This document shows positions 11,242 through 48,431 of a DNA stretch of 54,961 nucleotides, piece after piece. The notes below the pieces were generated by a model. It was not told where the DNA came from. It did not search any database and was given only the letters and a program-made list of their open reading frames with translations. The stretch's first letter is position 1. Each line of letters begins with the position of its first letter. The DNA comes from Bacteroidaceae bacterium (GTDB lineage: Bacteria; Pseudomonadota; Alphaproteobacteria; RF32; CAG-239): positions 52,573 to 107,533 of the forward strand of contig CAVKTH010000001.1 of assembly GCA_963659495.1 (NCBI GenBank), written 5' to 3'. A program made the position numbers and the translations under genes.

Positions 11242-11400
11242 ATGACAGACATAGAAAAAATTATAAAAATGTTATTTCCGGAAATAATGAAACTAATAGA
11301 CACGCAAAAAAATTCGGAATTAGAGCAGAAAGAACTGGATATTGCCGAAAATCCAAGCATTCATACTATTAAGAAAGGAGTTGAAAATGGTAGAAAATAA
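11242..11400 (+). CDS. hypothetical 52-aa protein (below the ORF-track cutoff)
   Basis: GGAGG at 11231-11235 and ATG at 11242. Hand translation gives MTDIEKIIKMLFPEIMKLIDTQ...GVENGRK*. It overlaps the DUF2924 start. Confidence 0.3.
   Translation: MTDIEKIIKMLFPEIMKLIDTQKNSELEQKELDIAENPSIHTIKKGVENGRK
11333..11364 (+). promoter_or_regulatory. bipartite motif copy F: AACTGGA-N13-CCAAGCATTCAT
   Basis: Exact half-sites at 11333-11339 and 11353-11364, ending 23 nt upstream of the DUF2924 ATG. Confidence 0.5.
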
Positions 11401-11800
11401 AGTTCTTCAACTTACAGAAATGAGTGTTAATGAATTAAAAAATTTATGGCGACAATATTTTGATACAGAACCTATCTGGAAAACCAAACGCTTTTATATT
11501 CCACGTCTTGCATACAGAATGCAAGAACTTGTTTACGGAGGAGTTCCTGCAAACGTTAAAAACATCTTACTTGGTAAAACTTTACAACGAGAGTTTAACA
11601 ATGAAAAAATGGACGGCCTGCCAAAAGTTGGAACAAAACTGGTTAAAACATATCAAGGAAAAGAATACAGCGTCGTTGTGTCCACCGCCGGATTTCAATT
11701 AGAAGGCAAATTTTATAAAAGTTTATCAGCGGTGGCTTATCAAATAACCGGTAAAAAAATATCCGGACGTTTTTTCTTTGGATTAGGAAATAAAAAATGA
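11387..11800 (+). CDS. DUF2924-like protein (typical upstream partner of large serine recombinases)
   Basis: LKNLWRQYFDTEPIWKTKRFYIPRLAYRMQELVYGG. Its stop overlaps the recombinase start (ATGA). Confidence 0.6.
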   Translation: MVENKVLQLTEMSVNELKNLWRQYFDTEPIWKTKRFYIPRLAYRMQELVYGGVPANVKNILLGKTLQREFNNEKMDGLPKVGTKLVKTYQGKEYSVVVSTAGFQLEGKFYKSLSAVAYQITGKKISGRFFFGLGNKK

Positions 11801-13470
11801 AAACGATTAAGTGTGCGATCTATACCAGAAAATCTACAGACGAAGGCTTAGATAAAGAATTTAATACTCTGGAAGCACAGCGTGAGTCCGGTGAAAATTA
11901 TATTAAAAGCCAAATGCACCAAGGCTGGCAGATTATAGAAAAGCACTATGATGACGGAGGCTTCTCTGGTGGTACACTTAAACGACCTGCCCTGCAGGAA
12001 TTGCTGCAAGATGTAGAAAATGGCGAAGTAAATATGATCGTGGTCTATAAAATTGACCGTCTCACACGTTCATTGATTGATTTTGCAAAATTAGTTGAAG
12101 TGCTTGACCGCAACCAGTGTTCATTTGTATCGGTAACGCAGAATTTTAATACTTATGATTCTATGGGACGATTGACACTAAATGTATTGTTGTCATTTGC
12201 CCAATTTGAACGAGAAGTTATAACCGAACGTATTCGTGACAAAGTTGATGCCTCTAAGAAAAAAGGCATGTGGATGGGCGGCAATATACCTATAGGTTAT
12301 GATGCAATTAACAAAAAACTTGTCATCAACAACAAAGAAGTTCCTGTTGTAAAGTTGGCTTTTGAAAAATATTTAGTTTTTCGCTCAGAAGTTGCTGTTG
12401 CAAATTGGCTAAATCTGAATGGCTATACAACAATGAGCAAAGGTAATAATGGGAAATTTAATCACCTGCGTATCAGCGAAATGCTCCGAAACGTTATTTA
12501 TATTGGCAAAATTCCACATAAAGATAAAATTTATGATGGTCAGCATAGTGCAATTATTTCTGAAGAACTATTCAATGAAGTACAGAAAATCAAAAATACA
12601 AATCGTGCCGGAAGATTAACGCCATCACGATTTTTTGAACACGCTTTATTAAAAGGATTGATAGAATGCGATTGCTGCCACGCCGCAATGGTATCTACTA
12701 AGTCAAATAAACACAACAAAATTTATGAATATTACACTTCTGTAAGAGCGGTTAAAGAAGGATACAAAAACTGTCTTGTCGGGAATATACCGGCCGGAGA
12801 AATGGATAATTTTGTATTAAATCAGCTTGCAGATATTATAAAATCGCCAAAAATTCTAAGCGGATTGATTGAAGAAGCTAAAATTAAACGGTCAGATATT
12901 TGCGATATCCAAATCATCAATAAGTTTGGTGACGGCATAGATTTCATCCACCGTATATCGCCTATAGTACAAAGGCAGCTTGTGGAACTGTTTATTAAAA
13001 AAGTTCGCGTAAATACCAACCGAATTAAAATAATTTACACAAAAACAGCTATAGAGCTTATGGATAACAATATGCGTGACAAGCTATTTCCTAACAATAT
13101 AGATGGTGAAGAAAATGAAATAATGTACCACGTTGAATTGCACAAAAAACGCGGTTCGGTTAAAATATTTGAACCTGAGACATATAAACCGGATCTATAT
13201 AATCCTCTATATCTTGCATTGATTAAAGCATTTAAATGGCAAGAAATAATACGCACAGAACATCTCACATTTGAAGAAGTAGCAGAAAGAGAAAAATTAA
13301 GCCGTGAATATGTAGGTAAAATTATGAAAATGACATATTTAGCTCCAGACATAATAACCTCAATTGTAGACGGTTCTTATCCTAAAACATTATCCATTAA
13401 CAAAATTGTTGAATCAGAAATTCCAATACTTTGGACAGAACAGCGAATAAAATATGGATTTACCGCCTGA
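11797..13470 (+). CDS. large serine recombinase (integrase)
   Basis: Resolvase domain AIYTRKSTDEG with the catalytic Ser, VYKIDRLTRS, a recombinase domain, and the Cys cluster ECDCCHAAM. 557 aa. Confidence 0.9.
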   Translation: MKTIKCAIYTRKSTDEGLDKEFNTLEAQRESGENYIKSQMHQGWQIIEKHYDDGGFSGGTLKRPALQELLQDVENGEVNMIVVYKIDRLTRSLIDFAKLVEVLDRNQCSFVSVTQNFNTYDSMGRLTLNVLLSFAQFEREVITERIRDKVDASKKKGMWMGGNIPIGYDAINKKLVINNKEVPVVKLAFEKYLVFRSEVAVANWLNLNGYTTMSKGNNGKFNHLRISEMLRNVIYIGKIPHKDKIYDGQHSAIISEELFNEVQKIKNTNRAGRLTPSRFFEHALLKGLIECDCCHAAMVSTKSNKHNKIYEYYTSVRAVKEGYKNCLVGNIPAGEMDNFVLNQLADIIKSPKILSGLIEEAKIKRSDICDIQIINKFGDGIDFIHRISPIVQRQLVELFIKKVRVNTNRIKIIYTKTAIELMDNNMRDKLFPNNIDGEENEIMYHVELHKKRGSVKIFEPETYKPDLYNPLYLALIKAFKWQEIIRTEHLTFEEVAEREKLSREYVGKIMKMTYLAPDIITSIVDGSYPKTLSINKIVESEIPILWTEQRIKYGFTA

Positions 13471-13614
13471 TTTATATTCAGAAAATCTAGTTTAGAATAT
13501 TTAATCGTATACCTTATTAAATATTCCCTTACTGATTAACACTAAAACTTATTGTCTATTTTTCGCATTTATAGAAAATAAACCTCTCTTCAATTTTTTA
13601 GCGAGGTTTATATT

Positions 13615-14100
13615 ATGAATCTTAAAATTTTTAACGGACTGCCTCCGTATGTCCGAATAACAATCTTATCGCAAATCCGCAGATTATTGTCAACATCAGT
13701 ATTTAACAAAGAAGACAGCGAAGATATCGCTCAAGACTTATTGCTCTTTTATCTGAAGCGTTTTTATACTATCCCTGATGTAGATGAGGCGTTGGTGGTT
13801 CACTCACTTAGACAATATGCCATCAATCTTCTGAAAAAACAATGTAATCGCAGGGACTACTTAAATTCCTCATTGGACTATGGCTCGTTCGATGAGGAAT
13901 TTTTTTTAGAAAATAATGACTGTTATAATTTTACAAGAGTGTCATTATCTATTTATTCAGAAAAATTTAATGCAAAAGAAAAACAAATATTTGAAATGCT
14001 TTACGAAGGATATTCAGCAAACGAAATATCCGCTGTTTTGCATATTCATAAACGTGTAATTAGGAGGTTTGTTGAAAAATTACGAAATATTTTAACATAA
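13615..14100 (+). CDS. sigma-70 family (ECF-like, regions 2 and 4) factor
   Basis: Region 2-like EDIAQDLLLFYLKRF. Region 4 HTH EKQIFEMLYEGYSANEISAVLHIHKRVIRRFVEKL. Confidence 0.55.
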   Translation: MNLKIFNGLPPYVRITILSQIRRLLSTSVFNKEDSEDIAQDLLLFYLKRFYTIPDVDEALVVHSLRQYAINLLKKQCNRRDYLNSSLDYGSFDEEFFLENNDCYNFTRVSLSIYSEKFNAKEKQIFEMLYEGYSANEISAVLHIHKRVIRRFVEKLRNILT

Positions 14101-15548: not shown

Positions 15549-16556
15549 ATGTTTATGATTAAAACCGCCGAGGCCGTGTCGTTGGGGCATCCGGACAAAA
15601 CCGCCGATTATATTTCCAGTTACATTTTGGACAGGATGATTGAGCAAGACGCCAATGTCCGTTACGCCGTGGAAGTTATGATTAAAGACAATACCGTGGT
15701 TTTGGGCGGTGAGATTTCCGGCGATGTCAATTTAACAAATGTCAAAGACTATGTTGTCGCCGCGCTTGGAGAAATCGGCTACGATGAGTTTTACAGCCAC
15801 CGCTGGAATGATAATGCCGTAAATCCGGCGAAAATTCAGGTTGTCAATCTCATCGGACGGCAATCGTCTGACATCTCGCAAGGCGTGGAGCAAAACGGCT
15901 GGGGCGATCAAGGTTTGTTTGTTGGTTACGCTTGCAAAGGCGTCGGCAATATCAGCCGTGAACAATACTTGGCGAAAAAGCTCTGTGACGCTTTGTATGA
16001 GTACGCTTTGCAGAATATCCACCTCGGAATTGACATCAAAACCCAGATTACTCTCAATGAACTGGGCGGCGTTGAAACAGCTGTTGTCGCCATTCCGATG
16101 CTGAAAGATGTGGATTTAACCACCTTTATCATTATGTCGCTGGGAGAAGAACCGGAAAACATCATTGTCAACGGCACCGGCAAATACACGCGCCACTCGT
16201 CAATTGCCGACTGCGGTGTCACAGGTCGTAAGCTGGCTTGCGATTTCTATTCGGCGGCGGCTCCGATTGGCGGTGGTTGTCCGTGGGGCAAAGACGCCAG
16301 CAAAGCTGATGTGACGCTTAATTTGTACGCCCGCAAATTGGCCTTGGAATATTTGCAGGATAATGACGAGTGTTTTGTTTACCTATCCTCGTGCATCGGC
16401 CAATCGGTACTGATGAGTGCCGAAGTTAAGACCGTCAAAAAAGGTGTTGAAACTATTAAATCGTTGTCAATTACCGCCAAACCCTCGGAAATCATCACCG
16501 AACTTGGCTTAAATAAACCAATTTTCGCAGAGCTGTGTAAAAATTGGGTATTTTAA
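15549..16556 (+). CDS. metK: S-adenosylmethionine synthetase-like protein (short, divergent MetK)
   Basis: SLGHPDKTADYIS, GWGDQGLFVGYA, DIKTQ, ADCGVTGRKL and GGGCPWGKDASKADVT are collinear with E. coli MetK GHPDK, GDQG, DAKSQ, GDCGLTGRK and GGGAFSGKDPSKVDRS. It is 335 aa versus about 384. Confidence 0.85.
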   Translation: MFMIKTAEAVSLGHPDKTADYISSYILDRMIEQDANVRYAVEVMIKDNTVVLGGEISGDVNLTNVKDYVVAALGEIGYDEFYSHRWNDNAVNPAKIQVVNLIGRQSSDISQGVEQNGWGDQGLFVGYACKGVGNISREQYLAKKLCDALYEYALQNIHLGIDIKTQITLNELGGVETAVVAIPMLKDVDLTTFIIMSLGEEPENIIVNGTGKYTRHSSIADCGVTGRKLACDFYSAAAPIGGGCPWGKDASKADVTLNLYARKLALEYLQDNDECFVYLSSCIGQSVLMSAEVKTVKKGVETIKSLSITAKPSEIITELGLNKPIFAELCKNWVF

Positions 16557-16618: not shown

Positions 16619-18013
16619 ATGTTTTCTGGATATAGTAGAAAAATTCCTTCGTATAAAAAATTTAACCATATTGAATTACTTAATATGGATGATTTTTCTT
16701 TTCAATTATTGAGAAAGAATCTTAAACAGCGCAATAGACTGTATTTGGGAAAGAATAAAGCTCAAAAGATTGATCGATTACTAAAAAATAAAAGAACGCC
16801 TTATGGTTCTCCTCATATTTCTCGACCACGAGCAGAATTAGTGAGATGCATGAAACAATTTCATCCTTCTGAGATTTTAGACACTTTTAATTCCAATAGA
16901 AATTCAAAGAATTGGTTATCTGGAAACAATCGTAAAAAAGTTATAAATCGAGATATTTATATTTCAAATTTTTCTTTTATTGATGCCCCTAATCAAACTT
17001 TAGAATATTTCTATAAATTAGCAGAGTATGAGCCTTATGCATTAAAAGCTTCTATTAGTTTTGCTGATGATCAAGTGTTGGATATAGCACCTTATTTATT
17101 ATTTGGTCTAATTCAACGAGATATGTATCCTTTTATTTTAAACGGTAGAATAAAATCTGGAATTACTAATATTATAGAAAGATTAAATCTAGATAAATTT
17201 ATGGGAATTACTATTGAAAAACATCAATATAATCCTAACATTTACGCTTTACCTTTATCTTACAAGCCAACAAGGGAAAATCTTGCATCAACAAATGTTT
17301 CTACATTAGAAGTCGAAGTAACTAGACTTATTCAGAAAATAGATGAATGGCTTTCTAAATTAAATCCACCTATGGTTTTAACTGATGATGGTAAGAGTTA
17401 TGTTCAAATATTTTCTAGCGAAATTTTAGATAATGCTCAGCGACATAGTATTATCGGGAAAGAGGGAAATTGGGCAATGGCTGGTTTTATGGAATATAGA
17501 GAGGAGAAATATCATTGTTGTCTATCATTTCTAAACACAGGCTTACCAATATATAAGACTATTATTAAAACGGAAAACTCGACTGTCGCTGAAGGATTAA
17601 AACAATATATTAATCAGCATAAAGAAGTAGATAAAGACATTCTAGCTACTGTTTTTGCTCTTCAAGACGGATCCACCCGGGAAAATTACCTAGGAAGTAA
17701 AGGTGGCGTCGGAATGATGAAAATGATAAAATTTATTAATGAAATTGGAGAAACGGATGAGGATCTTAAACCAGTGATATCTATTTTGACAGGAAATGTT
17801 TGCATTCGTTTTACTGATAAATACAGAAATATAGATAATGATTCTCGTTCTAGAAATATCCAATGGTTTAATGAAAAAGAAACACCAGATTTGCCTCCTG
17901 ATAAAAATTATGCTTTCTTATTGAAAAAATATTTTCCAGGAACTATAATAACAACAAGATTTATTCTTGATGAAAAAACTTTGAGAAAGAAATTAAAAAA
18001 TGACAACGAATAA
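16619..18013 (+). CDS. GHKL (Bergerat-fold, HATPase_c-like) ATPase/kinase with an uncharacterised ~250-aa N-terminal region
   Basis: N-box SSEILDNAQRHS, G1-like SFLNTGLPI, G2 GSKGGVGMMKMIKF and terminal PGTIITTRF appear in canonical order. Confidence 0.6.
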   Translation: MFSGYSRKIPSYKKFNHIELLNMDDFSFQLLRKNLKQRNRLYLGKNKAQKIDRLLKNKRTPYGSPHISRPRAELVRCMKQFHPSEILDTFNSNRNSKNWLSGNNRKKVINRDIYISNFSFIDAPNQTLEYFYKLAEYEPYALKASISFADDQVLDIAPYLLFGLIQRDMYPFILNGRIKSGITNIIERLNLDKFMGITIEKHQYNPNIYALPLSYKPTRENLASTNVSTLEVEVTRLIQKIDEWLSKLNPPMVLTDDGKSYVQIFSSEILDNAQRHSIIGKEGNWAMAGFMEYREEKYHCCLSFLNTGLPIYKTIIKTENSTVAEGLKQYINQHKEVDKDILATVFALQDGSTRENYLGSKGGVGMMKMIKFINEIGETDEDLKPVISILTGNVCIRFTDKYRNIDNDSRSRNIQWFNEKETPDLPPDKNYAFLLKKYFPGTIITTRFILDEKTLRKKLKNDNE

Positions 18014-18323
18014 AACAAAAACAATTGATTTGGAGCAATTTGCTCAAGGTAGAATTACTTTATTGGCTGCAAAACCTAAAGGTGCTGATGCTCGTACGGC
18101 ATTAAGTATAGATGATTTAGATAAAAGTGATGATGTTGTTGATGTATTAATTCCAGATTATATTATTACACTTACTCCTTCTTTTTTCTTAGGATTATTT
18201 TCAAAAAGCTTGGATTATTTGGGGGAAGAAAAATTTTTTCAAAAGTATCATTTCAAAAATGCTAAATTTAGCATACAGCAACAAATCAAAAGTGGTGTAG
18301 ATGATTGGAAAAATGCACAATGA
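18000..18323 (+). CDS. STAS-like (DUF4325-like) small partner protein
   Basis: 14-nt overlap with the ATPase gene. VVDVLIPDYIITLTPSFFLGLFSKSL resembles the DUF4325/STAS-like core from memory. Confidence 0.45.
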   Translation: MTTNKTKTIDLEQFAQGRITLLAAKPKGADARTALSIDDLDKSDDVVDVLIPDYIITLTPSFFLGLFSKSLDYLGEEKFFQKYHFKNAKFSIQQQIKSGVDDWKNAQ

Positions 18324-18895
18324 AAAAGTTTGTAACCGTTGTAATTATATATTTATTGTTTGTTGTAATAAGTTTTATTTCTTATAAGGATGGTATCTGG
18401 GGATTTAAATTGCCAGATACTTTGGCTATTTTTAGCGGAATATTATCACTTTATGTTTTATATGAGGAATATTCAAACAGAAATAAAGATAATGATAGAA
18501 GTATTTATATTCAGCCCTTGCTTTTTGAGTTCGCAACACTCAGAGACTTAGAAAATAAAGTAGATATCATTGATAAAATGTCTATTCATGATCCAATTGA
18601 AAAACGTCAAGATGACTTGAATAATTTACAGAAAAGTATAACAAACCTTGCATTAAGAATCTCTAATAGATTACAACAAGCAGATCAGCGTTTTAATTTA
18701 AAAAATAAAAAAGTTTTTGAAGATTTTTTAGAAGAAAAAGTTTATAATAAATGTGTACACTTATCACAAAATTTACTAAAAGATTATATTGAAATAACAA
18801 CTTTTCAAAATGATGCTAATGAACTAAAAAGCAACATATTAAATTTAGAAAACTTACTAAATGGTATAATAAATCAAATATCTGATGCATTATAA
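18320..18895 (+). CDS. N-terminal 2-TM protein with a helical cytoplasmic domain (candidate membrane effector)
   Basis: ATGA overlap with the previous stop. TM1 FVTVVIIYLLFVVISFISY and TM2 LAIFSGILSLYVLY, followed by Lys/Asn/Glu/Leu-rich helices. Confidence 0.55.
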   Translation: MKKFVTVVIIYLLFVVISFISYKDGIWGFKLPDTLAIFSGILSLYVLYEEYSNRNKDNDRSIYIQPLLFEFATLRDLENKVDIIDKMSIHDPIEKRQDDLNNLQKSITNLALRISNRLQQADQRFNLKNKKVFEDFLEEKVYNKCVHLSQNLLKDYIEITTFQNDANELKSNILNLENLLNGIINQISDAL

Positions 18896-19024
18896 AAGAG
18901 TAATGGGGTCCTTCCACTGAGTAGTTCGTATGCGGGGGCGCAAGCCGCGTTAAAAATCTAGTCAAACAACTTTTTGTTTACTGGTCGCCCATCTTATAAA
19001 CATTAGGATTCATAAGGCCTACAG

Positions 19025-19095
19025 CGGAATATGAAAATATTCCGGCTGGTCATTGGTCATTTTTGCTGGTCATTTTGGCTGGTCGGTTTTCATTT
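19025..19095 (+). promoter_or_regulatory. perfect hairpin cggaatat-gaaa-atattccg followed by four tandem TGGTC(A/G)(T/G)TTT repeats
   Basis: Hairpin at 19025-19044. TGGTC copies at about 19047, 19055, 19067 and 19079, and a fifth at about 18984. It lies immediately upstream of the ParB-methylase gene. Confidence 0.5.
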
Positions 19096-19098
19096 TAA

Positions 19099-20364
19099 AT
19101 GGAGTTTATTATGGAGTTTCACGCCACGTTTCCGGTTGCGGATTTAATTCCGTATGCCCGCAATTCACGCACGCATAACGAAGATCAAATCGCTCAGATT
19201 ATGGCGAGTATTAAGGAATTCGGTTTTACCAATCCGATTTTAATCGGTGGCGACAATGTCATTATCGCCGGACACGGACGCTTGCTCGCCGCTCAGAGGC
19301 TTGGTCTAAAAGAAGTTCCGATAATCTGTTTGCCGGACTTGACTGAAACTCAGCGCAAAGCTCTGATTATCGCCGACAACAAAATCGCCATGAACGCCGG
19401 TTGGGATGAGGAAATGTTGGCTCTGGAAATGAAAGAGCTTGAAGAAAGCGATTTTAATCTTGATATTTTAGGTTTCAGCGAAGACGAGCTTAAAGAGTTT
19501 GAAAACTTTGGCGAACCTCAAACAGAGGCGAAATCGGAAGAGGACGAAATCCCCGAAGCTCCGGTAGAACCGATAACCAAACGTGGCGACGTGTGGATTT
19601 TGGGCGAACATCGTTTGATGTGCGGCGACACCACGATGTTTGACGATATGCGAAAATTGATGCGAGACAACCGAGCCGCCATGATATTCACGGATCCGCC
19701 GTATAATGTGAATTACGGCTCGACAATGAAAGACAGCATTCGCTATCACGCCGGAACGCTTGGCGGGCGTAAAATTATGAATGACAACCTCGGCGATGGT
19801 TTCCCTCAATTTTTGACCGACAGCTTGTCAAATCTTTTGATGTTTTGCCAAGGCGCCGTTTATGTTTGCATGAGTTCCAGCGAACTGCACACGCTTTACA
19901 ACGCTTTTATCGCCGCCGGTGGCAAATGGTCGACTTTTATAATCTGGGTGAAAAACACCTTCACGCTCGGACGAGCCGACTATCAACGCCAGTACGAGCC
20001 GATACTTTACGGCTGGAACGCAGACAAGCCTCATTATTGGTGCGGAGACCGAGACCAATCTGATGTTTGGGAGTATAACAAGCCGGTAAAGAACGATTTG
20101 CATCCGACAATGAAACCGGTGGAACTGGTTGAACGAGCGATTTTGAACAGTTCAAAATCCGGCGATATTGTTTTGGACGGCTTTGGCGGTTCCGGTTCCA
20201 CGCTGATCGCCTGCGAGAAAAATAACCGCAAGGCTCGTTTAATGGAACTTGATCCGAAATTTTGCGACGTGATTGTCAAACGCTGGGAGGATTACACCGG
20301 AGAAAAAGCGGTACTGCAAAATTCTGAAGAAAAAACGGAAAATAGTGTCGAATTAACTGGATAA
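19099..20364 (+). CDS. ParB/Srx-like nuclease domain fused to an N6-adenine/N4-cytosine DNA methyltransferase
   Basis: NPILIGGDNVIIAGHGRLLAA (ParB-like N-terminus), FTDPPYNV (motif IV) and LDGFGGSGSTLIAC (motif I). Confidence 0.9.
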   Translation: MEFIMEFHATFPVADLIPYARNSRTHNEDQIAQIMASIKEFGFTNPILIGGDNVIIAGHGRLLAAQRLGLKEVPIICLPDLTETQRKALIIADNKIAMNAGWDEEMLALEMKELEESDFNLDILGFSEDELKEFENFGEPQTEAKSEEDEIPEAPVEPITKRGDVWILGEHRLMCGDTTMFDDMRKLMRDNRAAMIFTDPPYNVNYGSTMKDSIRYHAGTLGGRKIMNDNLGDGFPQFLTDSLSNLLMFCQGAVYVCMSSSELHTLYNAFIAAGGKWSTFIIWVKNTFTLGRADYQRQYEPILYGWNADKPHYWCGDRDQSDVWEYNKPVKNDLHPTMKPVELVERAILNSSKSGDIVLDGFGGSGSTLIACEKNNRKARLMELDPKFCDVIVKRWEDYTGEKAVLQNSEEKTENSVELTG

Positions 20365-20386
20365 GTTCCAAAAAGCAAGCATTCAT
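20355..20386 (+). promoter_or_regulatory. bipartite motif copy E: AACTGGA-N13-GCAAGCATTCAT
   Basis: Half-sites at 20355-20361 and 20375-20386. It overlaps the methylase stop, 36 nt upstream of the 20422 ATG. Confidence 0.5.
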
Positions 20387-20421
20387 TGACTTGTAAACAT
20401 TAACAAAAAAAGGAACTTAAA

Positions 20422-20745
20422 ATGAAAACAGTCAAAACCTACATGGTAAGAAAACCAAGCGACATTGAAGAAGTAATCAGCACCACGGCGGCAAATCGCC
20501 ACAACTTTGAAATCGCGGAGATTGCGGAAACAATCAAGTTAACACCCGAGCAATATCAGGCCATTTGTGAAAATCCGCTCAACGATTACGATTTTTTGAA
20601 TGGCAAGGGCGGATACAATGTCCATAACGGCGTTGAATATCGGCAAGTGGTGGAATTAACCTGCAATAACGAGCAACCGCTTTACGCCGACCCGTCAGGC
20701 TCGAGTTACTGTCGTTACCTAGGCGTTAATATTGCGAACGAGTGA
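20422..20745 (+). CDS. hypothetical early protein
   Basis: 107-aa ORF with RBS aaaggaac, preceded by motif copy E. Confidence 0.5.
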   Translation: MKTVKTYMVRKPSDIEEVISTTAANRHNFEIAEIAETIKLTPEQYQAICENPLNDYDFLNGKGGYNVHNGVEYRQVVELTCNNEQPLYADPSGSSYCRYLGVNIANE

Positions 20746-20766
20746 CAAACAGAAACATTAGAAACA

Positions 20767-20797
20767 AGCGCGCGGAAAACAAACCGGCGCTTTTTTT
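20767..20797 (+). terminator. intrinsic terminator
   Basis: agcgcgcgg...ccggcgct stem with one bulge, then T7. Confidence 0.5.
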
Positions 20798-20967
20798 CTT
20801 TGTGTTTTGCCCGTGCGTGGGCTGTTTCAGAGAGTGATAATCATAGCGGTATATTTGTACGAGAAAAAAGTTTTAACGCGGCTACGACGAATATTTGACG
20901 AGTTATTTGCCTATATTCAAATTATTATTTATTTTCAATATATTATAATCAAAAAATATGCGTTATT

Positions 20968-20999
20968 GACTGGACTTTATTGTGTTTCCAAGCATTCAT
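20968..20999 (+). promoter_or_regulatory. bipartite motif copy A: GACTGGA-N13-CCAAGCATTCAT
   Basis: Half-sites at 20968-20974 and 20988-20999. Confidence 0.5.
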
Positions 21000-21058
21000 T
21001 GAGTTAGCAAAGGCAAGATAGCCTTGGCGTTAACTAAAATTAGAAAAGGAACGAAAAA

Positions 21059-21265
21059 ATGACAAACAAAGTAAGATATCCGGAAATCCACGTGCAACTA
21101 GTTGGTCTGGACGGCAACGCGTTCGCCATAATCGGCAGATGCCGCGAAGCCATGCGCAGAGCAAAATTAGGTCACACGGAAATTAAACAATTTACCGATG
21201 AAGCGACCAGCGGCGATTACAATCACCTGCTAATAACTTGCATGGAATGGTTTGACGTGGATTAA
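21059..21265 (+). CDS. hypothetical small early protein
   Basis: 68 aa. The RBS context gaaaaggaacgaaaaaatg is repeated at the next gene. Confidence 0.55.
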   Translation: MTNKVRYPEIHVQLVGLDGNAFAIIGRCREAMRRAKLGHTEIKQFTDEATSGDYNHLLITCMEWFDVD

Positions 21266-21273
21266 AGAACTAC

Positions 21274-21293
21274 GGCGGGGTTGACGCCCCGCC
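21274..21293 (+). terminator. GC-rich hairpin GGCGGGG-N6-CCCCGCC (copy 1)
   Basis: ggcggggttgacgccccgcc, directly after the stop codon. No long T tract follows. Confidence 0.5.
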
Positions 21294-21321
21294 ACAATGA
21301 ATGCAAGAAAAGGAACGAAAA

Positions 21322-21816
21322 ATGAAAAAATTATTCATAATTAAAAATACCCGAAACAAAGCGTGTGGTTTATGGGGAACAGCCTGCGGAACATTCGGCG
21401 CGGAAATAGTTGAAGAACTTTGGAATATCTCCTCAATGTTAGTTCACGAAATTGGCGACTTTGATTCCAATCAAACACAAAAATTATTGGATAGTCCTTG
21501 GGGCAAGCTCTTAATTGGCGAATTTTGCAATGATATTGAAAACGGAGTTTTTATAAAAGCATTTATAAAAAAGATGACAAAAGAATGTTTACGCAATGAT
21601 TATGATTACTATGTGAAACAATTAAACAAAAAGACTGCAACAGAAAAAAACTACATAAAATATGAAAAATTCTGCGCCGAACTTGAAAAATTGAGCCGAA
21701 AATACGGAATAGTAATTCAAGCAGTCGGAGGTGTTCACCGGATGACAGATGATTTTATCGGATATAATCCCGACCTTGACAGTAAAGATTTAATGCCGAT
21801 ATGGAAAGACGATTAG
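21322..21816 (+). CDS. hypothetical early protein
   Basis: MKKLFIIKN...; the same RBS context as 21059. Confidence 0.5.
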   Translation: MKKLFIIKNTRNKACGLWGTACGTFGAEIVEELWNISSMLVHEIGDFDSNQTQKLLDSPWGKLLIGEFCNDIENGVFIKAFIKKMTKECLRNDYDYYVKQLNKKTATEKNYIKYEKFCAELEKLSRKYGIVIQAVGGVHRMTDDFIGYNPDLDSKDLMPIWKDD

Positions 21817-21826
21817 CTTAAACTCC

Positions 21827-21846
21827 GGCGGGGTTTTCGCCCCGCC
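21827..21846 (+). terminator. GC-rich hairpin GGCGGGG-N6-CCCCGCC (copy 2)
   Basis: ggcggggttttcgccccgcc. Confidence 0.5.
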
Positions 21847-21887
21847 TAAATCTCTCTGTGCTATTTCTTCAAAATTAATTCGGAAAG

Positions 21888-21919
21888 AACTGGACTTCAG
21901 TTGAATACCAAGCATTCAT
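21888..21919 (+). promoter_or_regulatory. bipartite motif copy B: AACTGGA-N13-CCAAGCATTCAT
   Basis: Half-sites at 21888-21894 and 21908-21919. Confidence 0.5.
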
Positions 21920-21977
21920 TGAGTTAGCAAAGGCTGAGGTAGCCAGCGCATTAACATAACAGAGAAGGAAATAAAAA

Positions 21978-22346
21978 ATGATTACATGGTATCACGAAAC
22001 AAAACAAGCACCGGATTTTGACAAACGCATTGCCCGCTGTGAGGAAGACGGAACTTGGGCTTATATGGACGAGATTGAAAAAGCTGACGCTGAACTAGAA
22101 AAGTTTAAAGCAAAGAAAGCTAAAACGCCGCGTGGTAAACGCGATGTGGTTGACGAACTGATAAAGCACGAACTCATTAAAGTCGACGAAATAATCAATA
22201 TTTTGGAGTTTTTGGGTATAGTTCCGATTCCGCCTAAAGGATACCTATCTGAAAGCGATGGTTGGTGTTGGTTTGAAGCCAATCCAACACGAGAAGAAAA
22301 GTTAAAAGTTTTAGAGGCTTTAAATTATGACATAAGCAGGCTTTAG
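21978..22346 (+). CDS. hypothetical early protein
   Basis: 122-aa ORF preceded by motif copy B and followed by hairpin copy 3. Confidence 0.5.
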   Translation: MITWYHETKQAPDFDKRIARCEEDGTWAYMDEIEKADAELEKFKAKKAKTPRGKRDVVDELIKHELIKVDEIINILEFLGIVPIPPKGYLSESDGWCWFEANPTREEKLKVLEALNYDISRL

Positions 22347-22356
22347 GTTAAACTTG

Positions 22357-22376
22357 GCGGGGTTAACGCCCCGCCT
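22357..22376 (+). terminator. GC-rich hairpin GGCGGGG-N6-CCCCGCC (copy 3)
   Basis: ggcggggttaacgccccgcc. Confidence 0.5.
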
Positions 22377-22416
22377 AAATTTCTCTGTGCTGTTTCTTCG
22401 ATTTTAATTCAGAAAA

Positions 22417-22448
22417 GACTGGACTTTCACTGAAATCCAAGCATTCAT
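22417..22448 (+). promoter_or_regulatory. bipartite motif copy C: GACTGGA-N13-CCAAGCATTCAT
   Basis: Half-sites at 22417-22423 and 22437-22448. Confidence 0.5.
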
Positions 22449-22507
22449 TGAATTGTAAGCAAAGACCAGGTGGTCAATGCGAAAACGTAAAGAAAAGGAA
22501 AATTAAA

Positions 22508-22762: not shown

Positions 22763-22890
22763 AGCAAATTACGCGGCGGAGCTTAAACACACCGCCAGCG
22801 AGCCACAAAGTCCCAAAACAGCTGGACTTTCGGCCGTTCAAGGAATGCTTATTTACCGAGTTCCTTTTCTGCTTTTCCGCGAACGGCGCG

Positions 22891-23058: not shown

Positions 23059-24393
23059 TTGAGAGTTTTAAGTTTGTTTGACGGCATATCCTGCGGACGC
23101 ATCGCCCTTGAACGCGCCGGAATTCCGGTTGATGTTTACTACGCCAGCGAAATTGACAAGTACGCCTCTACCGTGTCTCAAAAAAATTATCCAGACATCA
23201 TTCGTTTGGGCGATATTCGCGAGATTGATTTTTCTCAATTTACCGGCAAAATAGATTTGCTTATCGGCGGAAGTCCGTGCCAGGATTTGTCAATCGCCAA
23301 ACAAAATCGGCAAGGATTGTCCGGCGAGCGTTCCGGTTTGTTTTGGAAGTATGTCGAGGCTTTGAGAATTATTAAACCAAAACATTTTTTGCTTGAAAAC
23401 GTGGCCTCGATGAGCAAGGAAAACAAACAAGCGATTTCGGAAGCTCTTGGCGTCGAACCGGTTTTGATAAACTCGGCTTTGGTTTCGGCTCAGCAGCGCA
23501 AACGGCTTTATTGGTGCGATTGGCCTGTCGAACAGCCGGAGGATAAAGGAATATTGCTAAAAAGCGTTTTGGAAAGCGGTCAACCCTACACCGCTAAAAG
23601 TTACTGTTTAACCTCCAATTACAAAGGAGCGTATTTTAACCACAGTTTGATTACCAAACAGCGTTCAATGGTCGCCGAACCATTGCTGGTAGCTGAAAAC
23701 ACGAAAAAAGGATACACGGAAATAAATCAAGGCGAATGTTTTGACAACGCTTTTCCAAACAGCCACACCCGACGAGGTCGCAAAATGGAGAAAAAAGCCA
23801 ATTGTCTGACGGCAATTATCCCGCAATTTTTTCAGTATCTTGGATGCGCTCTAAGGACCAGAAACAAAACCAAGCGTTTGGAAGTCCGCAAGGACAATAA
23901 AGCCAACGCCTTGACTTCGGTTACGACAGACAGCGGAGTTTGCGTCGGCATCGCGGTGAAAAGCGTCGACAAATTCCGTAAGATAAAGACAATCAACCCG
24001 GAAAAATCCGACACTTTAATCGCCGGTTATTATAAAGCGCCGTTCAACCAGCAATCAACGGGCGTGTTTGCTCCCGTCGTGGTCGGATCTTGCGGTAAAC
24101 CGTGCCAAGGCAACAGAGTGTATTCGGTGCGTGGCAAATCGGTTTGTTTAAGTGCCAACGGCGGCGGCAAAGGATCTAAAACCGGATTGTATAAAATAGA
24201 TTTGCCGGACGGAGACTATTATGTACGCAAATTGACGCCGTTGGAATGCGAGCGTTTGCAAACCTTGCCGGACGATTATACCGTCGGTGTCAGCGACACG
24301 CAAAGATACAAGGCCATTGGAAACGGCTGGACCGTTGACGTCATAGCGCATATTTTTAAAGAACTGCTTAAAAGCGAAAAGCGTGAATGTTAA
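23059..24393 (+). CDS. DNA (cytosine-5)-methyltransferase (second copy, different lineage)
   Basis: Motif I LFDGISCG, motif IV GGSPCQDLS, motif VI LLENV, motif VIII QQRKRLYW, motif X GNGWTVDV. TTG start. Confidence 0.9.
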   Translation: MRVLSLFDGISCGRIALERAGIPVDVYYASEIDKYASTVSQKNYPDIIRLGDIREIDFSQFTGKIDLLIGGSPCQDLSIAKQNRQGLSGERSGLFWKYVEALRIIKPKHFLLENVASMSKENKQAISEALGVEPVLINSALVSAQQRKRLYWCDWPVEQPEDKGILLKSVLESGQPYTAKSYCLTSNYKGAYFNHSLITKQRSMVAEPLLVAENTKKGYTEINQGECFDNAFPNSHTRRGRKMEKKANCLTAIIPQFFQYLGCALRTRNKTKRLEVRKDNKANALTSVTTDSGVCVGIAVKSVDKFRKIKTINPEKSDTLIAGYYKAPFNQQSTGVFAPVVVGSCGKPCQGNRVYSVRGKSVCLSANGGGKGSKTGLYKIDLPDGDYYVRKLTPLECERLQTLPDDYTVGVSDTQRYKAIGNGWTVDVIAHIFKELLKSEKREC

Positions 24394-24418: not shown

Positions 24419-24721
24419 TCATTCTTTAATTAAACGAAACGTGCGAACGCCTTGAATTTTCTCGGAAACAAGTTTGTGTTCCGGATGATTTTTGACGTAA
24501 ATCGACATCGCTCCGCGAACAGAGTTTTCCAACCAGTTGAGTTTTGCCGCCAACTCTTTGAGACTGCTTCCGTTTTCCGCCGAAAGCAACTCCACCATCA
24601 ATTTGGTTTTGTTTATTTTAACCGGTTTTGACACGGTTTCCAAAGCGATTTTTTCGGTTGGTTGCTCTTTTTCATCAAGAGTTTTAGCTTCATCGTTTGC
24701 TGTTTGAATTGTTTTAGTCAT
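24419..24721 (-). CDS. DUF3489-like small winged-helix protein
   Basis: LMVELLSAENGSSLKELAAKLNWLENSVRGAMSIYVK resembles DUF3489 from memory. Confidence 0.45.
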   Translation of the reverse strand: MTKTIQTANDEAKTLDEKEQPTEKIALETVSKPVKINKTKLMVELLSAENGSSLKELAAKLNWLENSVRGAMSIYVKNHPEHKLVSEKIQGVRTFRLIKE

Positions 24722-24814
24722 AACGTATCCTTTCTAAAATGGTTGATTCACAATCACACTAATGCTTGGAAAAAAGAATTTATCCAGTACAATCTTGCGA
24801 AATAAGGAAAAAAG

Positions 24815-28952: not shown

Positions 28953-29003
28953 ATCTGGTAATTTTTGTTGATTTATTTGGTAATATTTAGTAATATCTGG
29001 TAA
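28953..29003 (+). repeat. left pair of ATCTGGTAA repeats flanking the Fic gene
   Basis: Copies at 28953-28961 and 28995-29003. Confidence 0.6.
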
Positions 29004-29020
29004 AATTGAAAGGAGGCAAT

Positions 29021-30085
29021 ATGCCAAGAATAAAAGATATTGTTATTACACCGGATATGTTAAATAAAATTGCTGAAATTGACCAGTTTGTTGGCTCGTG
29101 GAGTACAGATTTATCTAAATTGACCCCAGCTGAGTTAAAAGTTATGAAGCGAGTTGCAACAATTGAATCTGTTGGTTCCTCTAACCGTATCGAGGGCAAT
29201 AAAATGTCCGATGCGGAGATCGAGGAGTTGTTTAGCCATATCAACAAAAAGTCTTTTAAGTCTCGTGATGAAGAAGAAGTTGCAGGATACTCTGATTTGA
29301 TCAATACGATATTTGAGAGTTACAATGATATTCCGCTAACTGAAAATTATATTAAGCAGTTACATCAAATTCTTTTGAAATATTCTTCCAAAGATGAACG
29401 TCATCGCGGCGAATACAAAAAGGATAGTAATCGGGTGGCTGCTTATGATGCGACCGGAAAAGAAATCGGAACTATTTTTGAGACAGCTTCTCCTTTTGAT
29501 ACTCCTCACCTAATGAGCGAGTTAATTAAATGGACAAATGACACTTTTGAGGATCGGTTCTTGCACCCCATCATCACAATCGGGATATTTATTGTTCATT
29601 TTCTGGCGATACACCCATTTACGGATGGAAACGGTCGCATGTCGCGTGCCTTAACTGTTTTACTGATGTTGAAAAATAAATACAGCTATATGCCGTATGC
29701 TTCTATGGAATCAATTATCGAAGCAAGTAAAGATGCTTATTATCGGGCTTTACGCGGAACACAAAAAACGATATGGAATGATAAGGTTGATTATGAACCT
29801 TGGTTAACATTCTTTGTCACATCTCTTCAAAAGCAAAAACGAGCGTTGGAGGATAAAATTCAAAAGCTCAAGAAAGTGGATACAGATAAATTGTCTTCGA
29901 CTGCCCGTGAAATTATGAGCCTATTTGCTAACAATTCAGAAATGAGTATCTCTGAAATTGTTAAAAAGACAGGAAAAAATGCTGAAACTGTTCGTAAATC
30001 TGTACAAAGTTTGGTGAAAAAAGGATATTTAACTAAACTAGGAACAACACGCGGTGTTTCATACATACGAACAAGTGAAGAATAA
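29021..30085 (+). CDS. Fic-domain AMPylase-type protein with an N-terminal inhibitory motif and a C-terminal winged helix
   Basis: Fic motif HPFTDGNGRMSRAL, inhibitory-helix motif SNRIEG (SxxxEG) and a C-terminal wHTH ISEIVKKTGKNAETVRKSVQSLVKKGYL. AT-rich. RBS aggagg. Confidence 0.85.
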   Translation: MPRIKDIVITPDMLNKIAEIDQFVGSWSTDLSKLTPAELKVMKRVATIESVGSSNRIEGNKMSDAEIEELFSHINKKSFKSRDEEEVAGYSDLINTIFESYNDIPLTENYIKQLHQILLKYSSKDERHRGEYKKDSNRVAAYDATGKEIGTIFETASPFDTPHLMSELIKWTNDTFEDRFLHPIITIGIFIVHFLAIHPFTDGNGRMSRALTVLLMLKNKYSYMPYASMESIIEASKDAYYRALRGTQKTIWNDKVDYEPWLTFFVTSLQKQKRALEDKIQKLKKVDTDKLSSTAREIMSLFANNSEMSISEIVKKTGKNAETVRKSVQSLVKKGYLTKLGTTRGVSYIRTSEE

Positions 30086-30094
30086 TTTTTGTGA

Positions 30095-30135
30095 ATCTGG
30101 TAATTTTTCTTAGAGTATTTGGGAATATCTGGTAA
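30095..30135 (+). repeat. right pair of ATCTGGTAA repeats flanking the Fic gene
   Basis: Copies at 30095-30103 and 30127-30135. The 14-nt atctggtaattttt is identical to the left flank. Confidence 0.6.
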
Positions 30136-30182
30136 TACTTATTCCTATTTTACAAAAATCGCGGAATGCAAAAAATAAAAAG

Positions 30183-37312: not shown

Positions 37313-38365
37313 ATGGATACTCGTATTTCTTTTTCTAAAAAAGCAAAATCTGCGGCCGAACTTTTAATGCAATTAAAAGATAGAGGAATGACAATTGACG
37401 ATAATAATTTTGCATTAGATGTTTTGGATAAGGTTAATTATTATCGTTTATCTGGATATTGGTTCAAATTTCAAAATAAATGGCTTAAAAAAAATCAAAT
37501 ACCGGCAGATGCATCTTCTGAAGAAAAAAAACGATTAAATAATTTATTTGTTGTAGATGTGTCTTTTGCTAATATTGTTGATATTTATAAATTTGATACA
37601 AAATTACGTTCCTTATGTTTAGATGCCCTCGAAAAAATAGAAATTGCTATAGGTTCAGATATATGTGAGCATATGTGCAATTCTAAAGGCGGATATTGGT
37701 TCTTAGATAGAAATAATGTTTTGTCGGTAATTAAAAAACAAAAAGATAATACGAGTAAAGAAATATTTTCTTATGAAGTGTTGCTTGATGATATTGATGA
37801 AGTTATGAGACGCAATGAGCGTACAAAATGCATAAAGAGTTTTAAAAAAAAATATAATAATAAATACCCTCCTTATTGGATTCTATCACAATTAATAACT
37901 TTTGGGACGTTATCAAAATTATATACATCTCTTCCGTCTGAAGATAAAAAGCAAATTGCAAAAAATATTGGATTGAACATAGATATAATGGAAAAAAGTT
38001 TACAAACACTTGCTTATGTAAGGAATATTTGTGCTCACTATGCCAGATTATGGGATAATGAGAACAGTGTTACACCTGTCAATATACGTTTCAACCCTGT
38101 AGAACGCAATAGTCAATATAATTACGATTTTCACACGACAGGAAGTAATACAACATTTTTTCCTATTTTTTACCTGATATCATTTTATTTGAAAAATATT
38201 TATCCGGAATCTAAATGGTGTAATTTGATTATTTCAAAAGTTGATGAATATCAGAAAAAGACCACCACTAAAGATAATGTCCCTTTAATATCTTTTAAGA
38301 AAATGGGATTTCCGGAAAATTGGGAAAATTTGCCTTTATTTAAAGAGATGTTGCAGAATAAATAG
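37313..38365 (+). CDS. Abi_2 (AbiD/AbiF-like) abortive infection protein
   Basis: VNYYRLSGYWFKF and YVRNICAHYARLWD are typical of the Abi_2 family. AT-rich. Confidence 0.75.
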   Translation: MDTRISFSKKAKSAAELLMQLKDRGMTIDDNNFALDVLDKVNYYRLSGYWFKFQNKWLKKNQIPADASSEEKKRLNNLFVVDVSFANIVDIYKFDTKLRSLCLDALEKIEIAIGSDICEHMCNSKGGYWFLDRNNVLSVIKKQKDNTSKEIFSYEVLLDDIDEVMRRNERTKCIKSFKKKYNNKYPPYWILSQLITFGTLSKLYTSLPSEDKKQIAKNIGLNIDIMEKSLQTLAYVRNICAHYARLWDNENSVTPVNIRFNPVERNSQYNYDFHTTGSNTTFFPIFYLISFYLKNIYPESKWCNLIISKVDEYQKKTTTKDNVPLISFKKMGFPENWENLPLFKEMLQNK

Positions 38366-47268: not shown

Positions 47269-47316
47269 AAATTTATCTATCTTCAGTGTTTTTTTATGAC
47301 CTAAAATGGTAAAATA

Positions 47317-47733
47317 ATGCCTCATTTTGCAAATAAATACATAGGTCGCCCGTGGGTGGCTGGCGCACAAGGTCCCGATAGCTTTGACTGTTGGGGCTTT
47401 GCGCGTTATATACTAAAACACGAGTACGGACACAATGTGCCGCAAGTTAATATCAATCCTGATAATTTACGAGATGTTTTGCACGCTTTCAAAAATGATT
47501 TGGCTTTTCAATCGTTTTATGAAGTTGCACAACCTCGTGATGGAGATGTGGTATTGATGCGGCAAGCTAAAAATCCGGTTCACGCCGGTATATGGCTTGA
47601 CGTTGACGGCGGAGGCGTTCTGCATTGTTGCCGTAACAGCGGCGTGGTGTTCCAAGACACGCCGTCACTTAACGCAACCGGCTGGTTCTTGCATAGTTTT
47701 TATCGGGTGAAAGATTCGTCAGACATCGTCTGA
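47317..47733 (+). CDS. NlpC/P60-family tail peptidase (gpK-like)
   Basis: GPDSFDCWGFARYIL (catalytic Cys) and NPVHAGIWLD (His). Confidence 0.75.
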   Translation: MPHFANKYIGRPWVAGAQGPDSFDCWGFARYILKHEYGHNVPQVNINPDNLRDVLHAFKNDLAFQSFYEVAQPRDGDVVLMRQAKNPVHAGIWLDVDGGGVLHCCRNSGVVFQDTPSLNATGWFLHSFYRVKDSSDIV

Positions 47734-47784
47734 CGAATTTGATACGCACTGCGTAACGAATTTCCTACACTGTGTAGGAAATTC
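47714..47784 (+). other. two tandem perfect hairpins (11-bp and 12-bp stems)
   Basis: attcgtcagac-atc-gtctgacgaat (47714-47738, spanning the stop codon) and gaatttcctaca-ctg-tgtaggaaattc (47758-47784). Confidence 0.6.
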
Positions 47785-47802
47785 AGTAGACACTATCTAT
47801 GA

Positions 47803-47891
47803 AATTTGCGGAGATTATAATCTAATGCTTTACTTTAACTATTTCACAAACCATTGTCAGCCAGACAAGGGGCGGATAAGCGCGGCCGTTC
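47803..47891 (+). repeat. direct repeat copy 1: duplicated upstream region and first ~22 codons of the gpI/J-like gene
   Basis: aatttgcggagatt...atgctttactttaactatttcacaaaccattgtcagccagacaaggggcggataagcgcgg matches 49350-49441 with scattered mismatches. Confidence 0.8.
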
Positions 47892-48428: not shown

Positions 48429-48431
48429 CAT

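Follow-up and report, generated by a model that had tools for sequence, protein, structure and literature searches.

A bipartite, promoter-like motif of invariant spacing in prophages of uncultured gut Alphaproteobacteria, with a divergent phage-encoded sigma factor as its candidate reader

Introduction

The question raised by this locus is why a two-part sequence, (A/G)ACTGGA and a longer 3' block held exactly 13 nucleotides (nt) apart, stands repeatedly before an integrase operon and a series of small genes, and what reads it. By the window we mean the whole stretch of DNA analysed, 54,961 nt in length (positions 52,573 to 107,533 of contig CAVKTH010000001.1, assembly GCA_963659495.1), which from ~11.1 kb onward is prophage. 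An initial annotation, made from the letters alone, had proposed either a promoter for an alternative sigma factor or a two-part operator. The evidence described below supports the promoter side of that proposal and speaks against the operator, on account of a strict dependence on orientation and the absence of the only symmetrical element, TGGA-N12-TCCA, from working variants. It is our reading that the motif is a promoter core specific to one phage family and is recognized by the host core RNA polymerase together with the phage's own sigma factor, which resembles those of the extracytoplasmic function (ECF) group; we would give this a probability of about 0.45. The promoter nature of the motif and the position of the transcription start are both inferred, and the assignment of the sigma factor encoded at 13615-14100 as the reader is the least certain step.

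Copies of the motif in the window

A scan of the window with the pattern RACTGGA-N13-SCAAGCATTCAT returns five copies with 0 mismatches (at 11333, 20355, 20968, 21888 and 22417), all on the + strand and all where the initial annotation had placed them. Allowing up to three mismatches adds a sixth; at that tolerance the chance expectation is 0.04 (+/-0.20) matches, and six copies were reached in 0/100 shuffles. The copies, a related sequence and the genes that frame them are as follows.

11333-11364, + strand: motif copy 1, AACTGGA-N13-CCAAGCATTCAT; 22 nt 5' of the DUF2924 start at 11387, heading the DUF2924/serine recombinase operon
20355-20386, + strand: motif copy 2; 35 nt 5' of ATG 20422 (107-amino-acid (aa) protein)
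20968-20999, + strand: motif copy 3; 59 nt 5' of ATG 21059 (68-aa protein, phrog_1933)
21888-21919, + strand: motif copy 4; 58 nt 5' of ATG 21978 (122-aa protein), with a GC hairpin at 21827-21846 before the copy
22417-22448, + strand: motif copy 5; 59 nt 5' of ATG 22508 (84-aa protein), with a GC hairpin at 22356-22375 before the copy
24758-24789, - strand: motif copy 6, TACTGGA-N13-CCAAGCATTAGT, 3 mismatches; 36 nt 5' of the DUF3489 gene start at 24721
about 22820-22852, + strand: motif-like sequence, apparently a remnant, GCTGGActttcggccgttCAAGgaatGCttAT, with an indel in the 3' block
11242-11400, + strand: small open reading frame (ORF), 52 aa; copy 1 lies in its 3' portion, and the frame runs past the DUF2924 start
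11387-13470, + strand: DUF2924 gene (11387-11800) and large serine recombinase gene (11797-13470), the operon after copy 1
24419-24721, - strand: DUF3489 gene, the sole minus-strand gene called in the prophage
21274-21293, + strand: GC-rich terminator-like hairpin, GGCGGGG-ttgacg-CCCCGCC, after the gene 21059-21265

The gaps of 22, 35, 59, 58 and 59 nt between the exact copies and their start codons (11387, 20422, 21059, 21978 and 22508) agree with the 23-60 nt given originally, and each of these ATGs has a good Shine-Dalgarno (SD) sequence. That all copies lie on the + strand is true of these five; the sixth, which had been overlooked, is on the minus strand, in the 93-nt divergent region between the DUF3489 gene and the small terminase gene (TerS; ATG 24815). 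The degenerate copy previously assigned to 22820-22852 does not stand as such: it carries an indel in its 3' block, is not matched at up to three mismatches, and is followed by no SD sequence and ORF in the ~200 nt up to the next gene. It has the appearance of a motif copy that has decayed. Two of the exact copies overlap coding sequence. The 5' block of copy 2 covers the final codons and TAA stop of the ParB-N6-methylase gene, and the frame of the 52-aa ORF runs through copy 1, where CTG-GAT is read as LD and CCA-AGC-ATT-CAT as PSIH; this protein is conserved in relatives, so that the integrase-type copy is under both coding and regulatory constraint.

Occurrence and anatomy in related phages

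The comparison set consisted of the window and 144 related loci, 1.12 Mb in total, to which the counts below refer unless another source is named. It contains 183 exact copies, with 144 unique cores, and 45 copies that keep the canonical spacing with one to three mismatches; when the spacing is shortened or lengthened by one or two bases, matches fall to chance level. The two conserved blocks and strict spacer that characterize ECF-type promoters are thus found here (183 exact and 45 near copies, a single spacing). Outside the set, the exact 31-nt pattern is present in 26 IMG/VR contigs and in at least 118 stretches of species-representative genomes. Among the matches listed, nearly all are from gut or rumen metagenome-assembled genomes labelled Alphaproteobacteria, 'Azospirillum sp. 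51_20', 'Acetobacter sp. 46_36', Rhodospirillales or Rickettsiales, and a few isolated matches in unrelated taxa are in line with chance expectation. The motif is restricted to one phage family, prophages of uncultured gut Alphaproteobacteria. Its absence from related phages with conserved flanking genes had been named at the outset as an observation that would count against it; what is found is that the motif is there wherever those genes are conserved. A literature search with the motif sequence returned unrelated primer matches only.

The spacing of 13 nt holds throughout, and it is only the description of the spacers as unrelated that needs correction, in that they are partly conserved at both ends. 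After ACTGGA, positions +6 to +8 read (C/T)(T/A)T, and the last four spacer positions before CCAAGC are A/T-rich and end in T (0.6-1.45 bits); the core of the spacer and the flanks vary freely. TG is conserved directly after CATTCAT, as is an upstream block TGCA(T/G)AATT, and upstream A/T tracts at about -25, -15 and -5 are phased by ~10 bp in the manner of an UP element. At least 17 motif positions are fixed, although the proteins encoded downstream are only 35-60% identical.

The evidence that the motif is directional comes from what follows it. A co-oriented SD sequence and ORF begin 16-63 nt after the motif in 169 of the 183 exact copies, with leader lengths that fall in three classes (21-25, 29-41 and 52-59 nt). 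The shortest leaders (16-17 nt; CAAGCAGGAGGTCAATATG) hold space for an SD sequence only, from which it follows that the start of transcription would have to coincide with the 3' block or follow it directly. The downstream ORFs make up approximately nine phage gene families, the largest being that of the gene at 20422 (39 exact copies), followed by DUF2924 (38), a family of proteins starting MTTQKKK or MTTSKKK that corresponds to the DUF3489 gene (35), and the families of the genes at 21978 (22) and 21301 (13), with a few smaller ones. Near-matches front the same families. The copy best conserved in relatives is that of the DUF3489 promoter. There is no sign of a host regulon, neither exact nor near copies being found before host genes in the 1.1 Mb examined.

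The downstream genes had been called early genes; this label is an assumption, and what is observed is a set of small genes in a moron-like layout, several of them separated by hairpins. In the window, GC hairpins trail three small genes, those at 21827-21846 and 22356-22375 being similar to the one at 21274-21293 and dividing the small-gene cassettes; two are ~40 nt upstream of the next motif copy. Amongst relatives, 26/92 copies of the ACTGGAC class have such a hairpin upstream, an enrichment over the 9/92 found in controls. Cassettes divided by terminator-like hairpins need promoters of their own, and no other conserved element is available in the short intergenic regions concerned. Since the motif is directional, gene-proximal and the sole conserved signal where a promoter is required, we read it as a promoter, and it is highly probable, judged from these sequence features, that it behaves as one.

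Some observations on the leaders should be added. About one third of the motif-driven leaders, those of the 52-59-nt class, share AGC-AAA-GGC-AYGGTR-GCC-NNN-GCATTAAC (in the window at 21003-21040, 21923-21958 and 22452-22490), and the leader of copy 3 contains a AGCAAAGGC-AAGATA-GCC...GCGTTAAC element. The shared element comprises a small, weak hairpin and a second AGCATT-like box ~35 nt past the first, and might act as a binding site for a protein or cause pausing; the hairpin was not accepted as a structured RNA, being thermodynamically weak (z about 0 to -2.8). Directly past the hairpin at 21274-21293 stands ATGAATGCAAG (21297-21307), the inverse of the 3'-block-like CTTGCATTCAT. The gene listed as 21301-21816 is more likely to start at ATG 21322 (SD AAGGAA), and it has no motif copy of its own in the window, though relatives have one.

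Fit to known promoter classes

The initial annotation was right that the motif does not fit TTGACA/TATAAT: there is no sigma-70-type -10 element, and the + strand copies are not picked up by a consensus scan, in which sigma-70 sites were not enriched. At the -35 position, TGGAC(T)/TGGATA matches 4/6 of TTGACA. As a sigma-70 -10 element the 3' block was rejected; positions 24-31 read CATTCATT, G23, C24 and T30 are invariant, and no register gives A-11 together with T-7. Sigma-54 promoters (TGGCAC-N5-TTGCA) have GG and GC 10 bp apart, and the distance from the GG of ACTGGA to the GC of AAGCA is 18 bp in every copy. The sigma-32 and EcfG consensus sequences do not fit. A promoter for a T7-like RNA polymerase was also discarded, no ORF resembling a single-subunit RNA polymerase having been recognized among those scanned; the large ORFs are the large terminase (TerL), portal, a probable tape-measure protein (895 aa, not family-scanned) and TipJ. 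An operator of the CI/Cro type fits poorly, in that the sole dyad, TGGA-N12-TCCA, which is also the only symmetry in the motif, is lost in working variants and the great majority of copies are co-oriented with the next gene. No repressor of the CI/Cro type, such as the initial annotation mentioned, was recognized among the prophage ORFs scanned.

An element T(G/T)GA(C/T) followed ~16-17 bp on by GC(A/G)TT is compatible with recognition by a holoenzyme of the sigma-70 family, and with ECF-type spacing in particular. The motif cannot be filed as an ECF promoter, because its 5' block has no AAC and the candidate sigma factor scores below the curated cut-offs.

The sigma-like protein and its leader

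Two further features, both in the recombinase region, need to be introduced.

13615-14100, + strand: ECF-like sigma factor candidate, 161 aa, encoded 3' of the recombinase gene and in the same direction; proposed to read the motif
13578-13611, + strand: hairpin of the sigma leader, AUAAACCUC...GAGGUUUAU; pairs the SD sequence of the sigma gene, directly before the ATG

The proposal that the element encodes a sigma factor at 13615-14100 is borne out, for a divergent ECF-like protein, by its fold, by sub-threshold matches to hidden Markov models (HMMs) and by homology to a protein of phage WO. Pfam finds only a sub-threshold region 4/GerE helix-turn-helix (HTH) in it (Sigma70_r4_2, 17.9 against a cut-off of 25.7), with no match to Sigma70_r2. 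ECF models of NCBIfam, by comparison, span residues 20-159 (TIGR02985, E 2.5e-8; NF058625, 8.8e-7; TIGR02937, 3.3e-5), and phrog_1740, 'sigma factor', matches at 8.9e-8. The AlphaFold (AF2) model has a predicted local distance difference test (pLDDT) score of 73.7. Its top Foldseek matches in the PDB are ECF sigma factors, namely Bartonella RpoE/NepR (5uxx; probability 0.99), SigH of M. tuberculosis and sigmaE of E. coli, and the named top matches in BFVD are phage ECF-type sigma factors. These alignments cover ~145-170 columns at low TM-scores (~0.3), as expected if the orientation of the domains differs between model and targets. Taken together, HMMs and fold give the protein the two-domain sigma2 + sigma4 architecture. 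Comparison by hhalign with the annotated sigma factor of Wolbachia phage WO extends over the full length (probability 87.8%, E 3.3e-6).

The order motif-DUF2924-recombinase-sigma is conserved on one strand, even in the distant locus L009, and a sigma ORF is present in 24 of 35 integrase loci with a downstream stretch of 900 nt or more; a profile search for related loci with the sigma alignment yielded 12 close relatives only. ECF sigma factors usually autoregulate, and a motif copy upstream of an operon that may include the sigma gene would match this habit.

In the window, 145 nt and the hairpin stand before the sigma gene. The hairpin has 9-14 bp, with a value of -11.3 kcal/mol (z = -3.05) for the window, and when each sequence is folded separately (50 nt before the ATG) the SD sequence is fully paired in 26/26 unique relatives (the window and 25 unique related loci, e.g. 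L013, L004, L112, L001 and L070). The arms co-vary between groups and remain complementary, as in AAGCCTC/GAGGCTT, CCTTTC/GAAAGG and GGCCTTTTGT/ACAAAAGGTT. As the SD sequence is paired in all of them and the arms co-vary, synthesis of the sigma factor appears to be under conserved translational control, which is what would be expected of a switch protein; the hairpin probably gates its translation. Direct repeats such as GTACACAGatttTTACACAAG occur just past the recombinase stop codon in relatives (L013, L004, L153), ~150 nt before the sigma ATG; they might serve as an operator for transcription of the sigma gene and are not obvious in the window.

The scheme that we propose is as follows. T(G/T)GA(C/T)(T/A), within the ACTGGA block, would be the -35-like element and AGC(A/G)TTCAT, ~16-17 bp downstream, the -10-like element; transcription would start a few bases past CATTCAT, and the phased upstream A/T tracts would serve as an UP-like element. 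The units so expressed would be separate: the small ORF, DUF2924 and serine recombinase genes, possibly with readthrough to the sigma gene; the DUF3489 gene in the divergent direction; and the accessory genes, that is, the variable small genes downstream of the ParB-methylase gene. The reader would be the host core RNA polymerase carrying the phage ECF-like sigma factor, whose own synthesis would be gated by the hairpin that sequesters its SD sequence.

What reads the motif?

Several observations weigh against the phage sigma factor in this role. The 5' block ACTGGA(C/T) is without the 'AAC' typical of an ECF -35 element, and its natural variants drift towards the sigma-70-like TTGA, becoming TTGAC or TTGAT (AGTTGAC, ACTTGAT). 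The protein falls under curated cut-offs (TIGR02937, 23.6 against 42.9); hhalign with E. coli RpoE aligns region 4 only, with 3% probability, and a sequence-profile search of the PDB with the sigma alignment gives only HTH matches of the LuxR/GerE type. The recognition helix of the C-terminal HTH, which would be the part that contacts the -35-like block, differs widely between groups (HKRVIRRFVEKLR / SKKTIYKFFEKVR / SKNVLENIRGKIR / SKGTPKRIAEKIK), and all sigma groups keep an identical ACTGGA...CAAGCATTCAT at the int and DUF3489 promoters; no sigma-motif co-variation was seen in the six sigma subgroups compared. In the compact group-F elements the sigma gene is found apart from the recombinase, further downstream beside a TerS-like gene and behind terminator-like hairpins. 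Finally, small islands of the L093 type consist of motif, DUF2924 and recombinase, with no sigma ORF nearby.

The best-surviving alternative, which we nonetheless consider unlikely, is that a host sigma factor, be it the housekeeping sigma-70 or an alternative one, reads the promoter and that a conserved site for a phage or host transcription factor overlaps it. The overlapping site would then explain the length and invariance of the motif, and the phage sigma factor would serve another class of promoter, for example that of late genes. It would be in keeping with this that the motif is identical across phages whose sigma-like proteins are ~25% identical and have different recognition helices, and that all the hosts, represented here solely by metagenome-assembled genomes, belong to one group of gut Alphaproteobacteria. 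The 5'-block variants approach the canonical -35 sequence, and the islands without a sigma gene retain the motif before the recombinase operon. The group-F sigma gene immediately precedes the TerS-like gene, where a late regulator would typically be found, and other possible targets for the sigma factor exist in CTGGTCA boxes (before the methylase gene and, in L101, before the TerS-like gene) and in CTGGTAAT boxes of the late region. Against a host sigma factor stand the lack of a TATAAT-like -10 element at the right distance, where G23, C24 and T30 are invariant rather than A-11 and T-7, and the lack of exact or near copies before host genes in the 1.1 Mb examined. Moreover, no candidate for the transcription factor was identified; for DUF3489 the fold search was uninformative, with a low-confidence structure model and no significant Foldseek match, and no functional literature was found on DUF3489 or DUF2924.

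Two kinds of small element deserve description here. L093, and also L098, L118 and L029, carry an exact motif, DUF2924, the serine recombinase and a 259-aa protein; the islands of this type could be remnants or sigma-less mobile islands. The compact elements L068, L084 and L101 have the order int-69aa-DUF6291-DUF6362-sigma-TerS-like gene, together with a convergent, motif-driven DUF3489 gene; no TerL match was found inside these three loci, and the layout resembles that of satellites such as phage-inducible chromosomal islands (PICIs).

A wider scheme, which must be regarded as improbable, would have motif and phage sigma factor form a private circuit that replaces a CI-type repressor switch and extends to satellites activated in trans. 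Here the hairpin-gated sigma factor would fire one invariant promoter at the integrase operon, the DUF3489 regulator and the shuffled accessory cassettes; the divergent DUF3489 regulator would oppose the terminase/late operon; and the sigma-less islands and compact satellite-like elements would be trans-activated by the sigma factor of a co-resident helper phage.

It is more doubtful still that the motif is mainly an operator, i.e. a bipartite site through which a phage regulator (DUF3489, DUF2924 or another small protein) switches lysogeny-associated genes, the actual promoter hexamers being incidental. A weak inverted repeat, TGGA-N12-TCCA, is present in ~90% of copies, but variants at conserved gene-proximal positions lack the TCCA half (AAGAGCATTCAT). 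'GCA' recurs 32 bp apart (in the upstream TGCA and in the AAGCA of the 3' block), and DUF3489, the only divergent gene, always comes with the best copy, as an autoregulated repressor might; the copy between TerS and DUF3489 also overlaps a + strand TTGGAA-N16-TACAAT. Yet the orientation of the motif strictly follows the downstream gene and its distance to the SD sequence is short and fixed, neither of which a symmetric operator would need, and the hairpin-separated cassettes, with no other conserved element in their intergenic regions, would be left without the promoters that they require.

A boundary or recombination sequence, whether a linker for cassette exchange or a site for one of the two serine recombinases, with any regulatory role secondary, is very improbable: the set of small genes behind the motif does vary among related phages where motif and leader are constant, and the prophage does encode a large serine recombinase and a small resolvase/invertase, but the copies are short (~32-65 bp) and always at promoter distance from an SD sequence and ATG, the gene orders of the loci gave no noticeable sign of rearrangement between copies, a resolvase would delete copies in direct orientation, and cassette exchange could be a by-product of shared promoters.

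Prophage setting and neighbouring elements

The prophage begins with the small ORF, DUF2924, the large serine recombinase, the sigma-like ORF, DUF6291/DUF6362, a MetK-like gene, low-GC cargo and the ParB-N6-methylase, and continues with five small genes, a Dcm methylase, the minus-strand DUF3489 gene, TerS, TerL, portal, capsid and tail genes; it further carries Abi_2 and AbiE cargo and encodes a TipJ tail protein. The genes before 10.6 kb have, with one weak exception, no counterparts in related phage loci and are presumably host genes. The closest deposited phages, judged by TerL, are Ralstonia prophages and Wolbachia phage WO, at only ~51% identity. Scans of the whole window with Rfam, at gathering thresholds, and for tRNAs found nothing.

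In the divergent region, TTGGAA-N16-TACAAT at 24766-24793 (+ strand), with 9/12 sigma-70 matches, overlaps the minus-strand motif copy, leaving 21 nt to the TerS ATG. Only ~25-30 nt separate the start codon of TerS from ACTGGA in relatives, so that transcription of the late operon must cross or overlap the DUF3489 promoter.

There are further repeated elements. At 18905-19084, ending just before the start of the ParB-methylase gene, a conserved ~50-nt element GGGGTCCTTCC...TTCGTATGCGGGGGCgCAAGCCGCG is followed by four to five (A/G)CTGGTC(A) boxes ~11-12 nt apart, and the same element with boxes occurs in L101 (~3120-2920, minus strand) between the sigma gene and the TerS-like gene. The CTGGTCA and CTGGTAAT boxes could be further regulatory sites. 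Box arrays of ATCTGGTAAT / TTGGTAAT / TTGGGAAT at 28955-29004 and 30097-30138 flank a low-GC ORF (29006-30085). The neighbours of this ORF are the portal gene and a 363-aa ORF (not family-scanned) that occupies the protease/scaffold position, and the whole has the appearance of an inserted gene enclosed by a regulatory or boundary array that has been duplicated.

Three genes are concerned with methylation, encoding a MetK-like S-adenosylmethionine synthetase (15549-16556), the ParB-N6-adenine methylase (19099-20364) and a C5-cytosine methylase (23059-24393), and may constitute an anti-restriction module. Low-GC inserts (28-31%, in a backbone of 45-50% GC) at 16619-18895, 37313-38365 and 46042-49331 carry unassigned genes, an Abi_2 protein, NlpC/P60 and a DUF6088+AbiEii toxin-antitoxin pair; they look like defence cargo.

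Comparison with known systems

ECF promoters include the alphaproteobacterial EcfG type, GGAAC-N16/17-CGTT, and that of E. coli sigmaE, GGAACTT-N16-TCAAA. Like these, the motif is bipartite, with a strict spacer, two highly conserved blocks and a small regulon; a copy lies upstream of an operon that may include the sigma gene, the candidate reader has a 161-aa, two-domain ECF-like fold, and some variants read C(G)TT at -10 (AGAGCGTTCAT). The motif differs from them in a -35 block without 'AAC' and in a 3' block that is much longer, with 12-14 conserved bases. The system is also unusual in that its sigma factor is phage-encoded and below curated cut-offs, and that no anti-sigma factor was recognized, an SD-sequestering hairpin being found instead.

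Phage sigma factors with private promoter classes are exemplified by gp28 and gp33/34 of Bacillus phage SPO1, gp55 of T4 and gp36 of phiEco32, all from lytic phages, in which cascades of sigma factors direct the middle and late genes. The present phage shares with them a sigma factor of its own and a non-sigma-70 consensus found on phage genes and not on host genes. Unlike them it is temperate, and what stands behind the motif is not a set of structural genes but the integrase operon, a small, divergent, regulator-like gene and moron-like cassettes; no similarity between their consensus sequences and the motif was noticed. The sigma-like protein of the window has in gwv_1123 of phage WO ('RNA polymerase sigma factor, sigma-70 family'; KX522565.1, 56080-56571) a full-length homologue of similar size (163 aa), in a phage with a lambda-type TerL ~51% identical to that of the window. 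The gene order of phage WO differs, and the motif was not found in it at up to three mismatches; this is uninformative because both the sigma factor and the host are different. A full-text literature search found no described promoter for the phage WO sigma factor.

Lambdoid morons are promoter-gene-terminator cassettes, and lambda CII activates pI, pRE and pAQ from TTGC-N6-TTGC sites that flank a sigma-70 -35 element. The likeness to both is that small genes have their own promoter-like element, several with a trailing hairpin, and that one signal couples the integrase to lysogeny-side genes. In contrast to lambda, neither a TTGC-N6-TTGC repeat nor a CII-like protein was found, and, unlike lambdoid morons, all the cassettes use one near-identical promoter.

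Significance

Private promoter classes of phage-encoded sigma factors were already known from lytic phages, as were strictly spaced, bipartite ECF promoters. The new elements are the consensus itself, which is extremely invariant throughout a metagenomic phage family; its position in a temperate phage, where it precedes the integrase, a small divergent gene and moron-like cassettes instead of late genes; and the link to an uncharacterized sigma family shared with phage WO. The motif is a very specific tag, the 31 bases of which find these prophages, and possible satellites, in metagenomes. If it is a private promoter class, it would give that sigma family, which reaches the Wolbachia phage WO, a testable target, and would yield a compact, orthogonal sigma/promoter pair that could be useful in Alphaproteobacteria. 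For the prophages of abundant uncultured gut and rumen Alphaproteobacteria, it would amount to a regulatory map that takes in the integrase, DUF3489 and the accessory cassettes.

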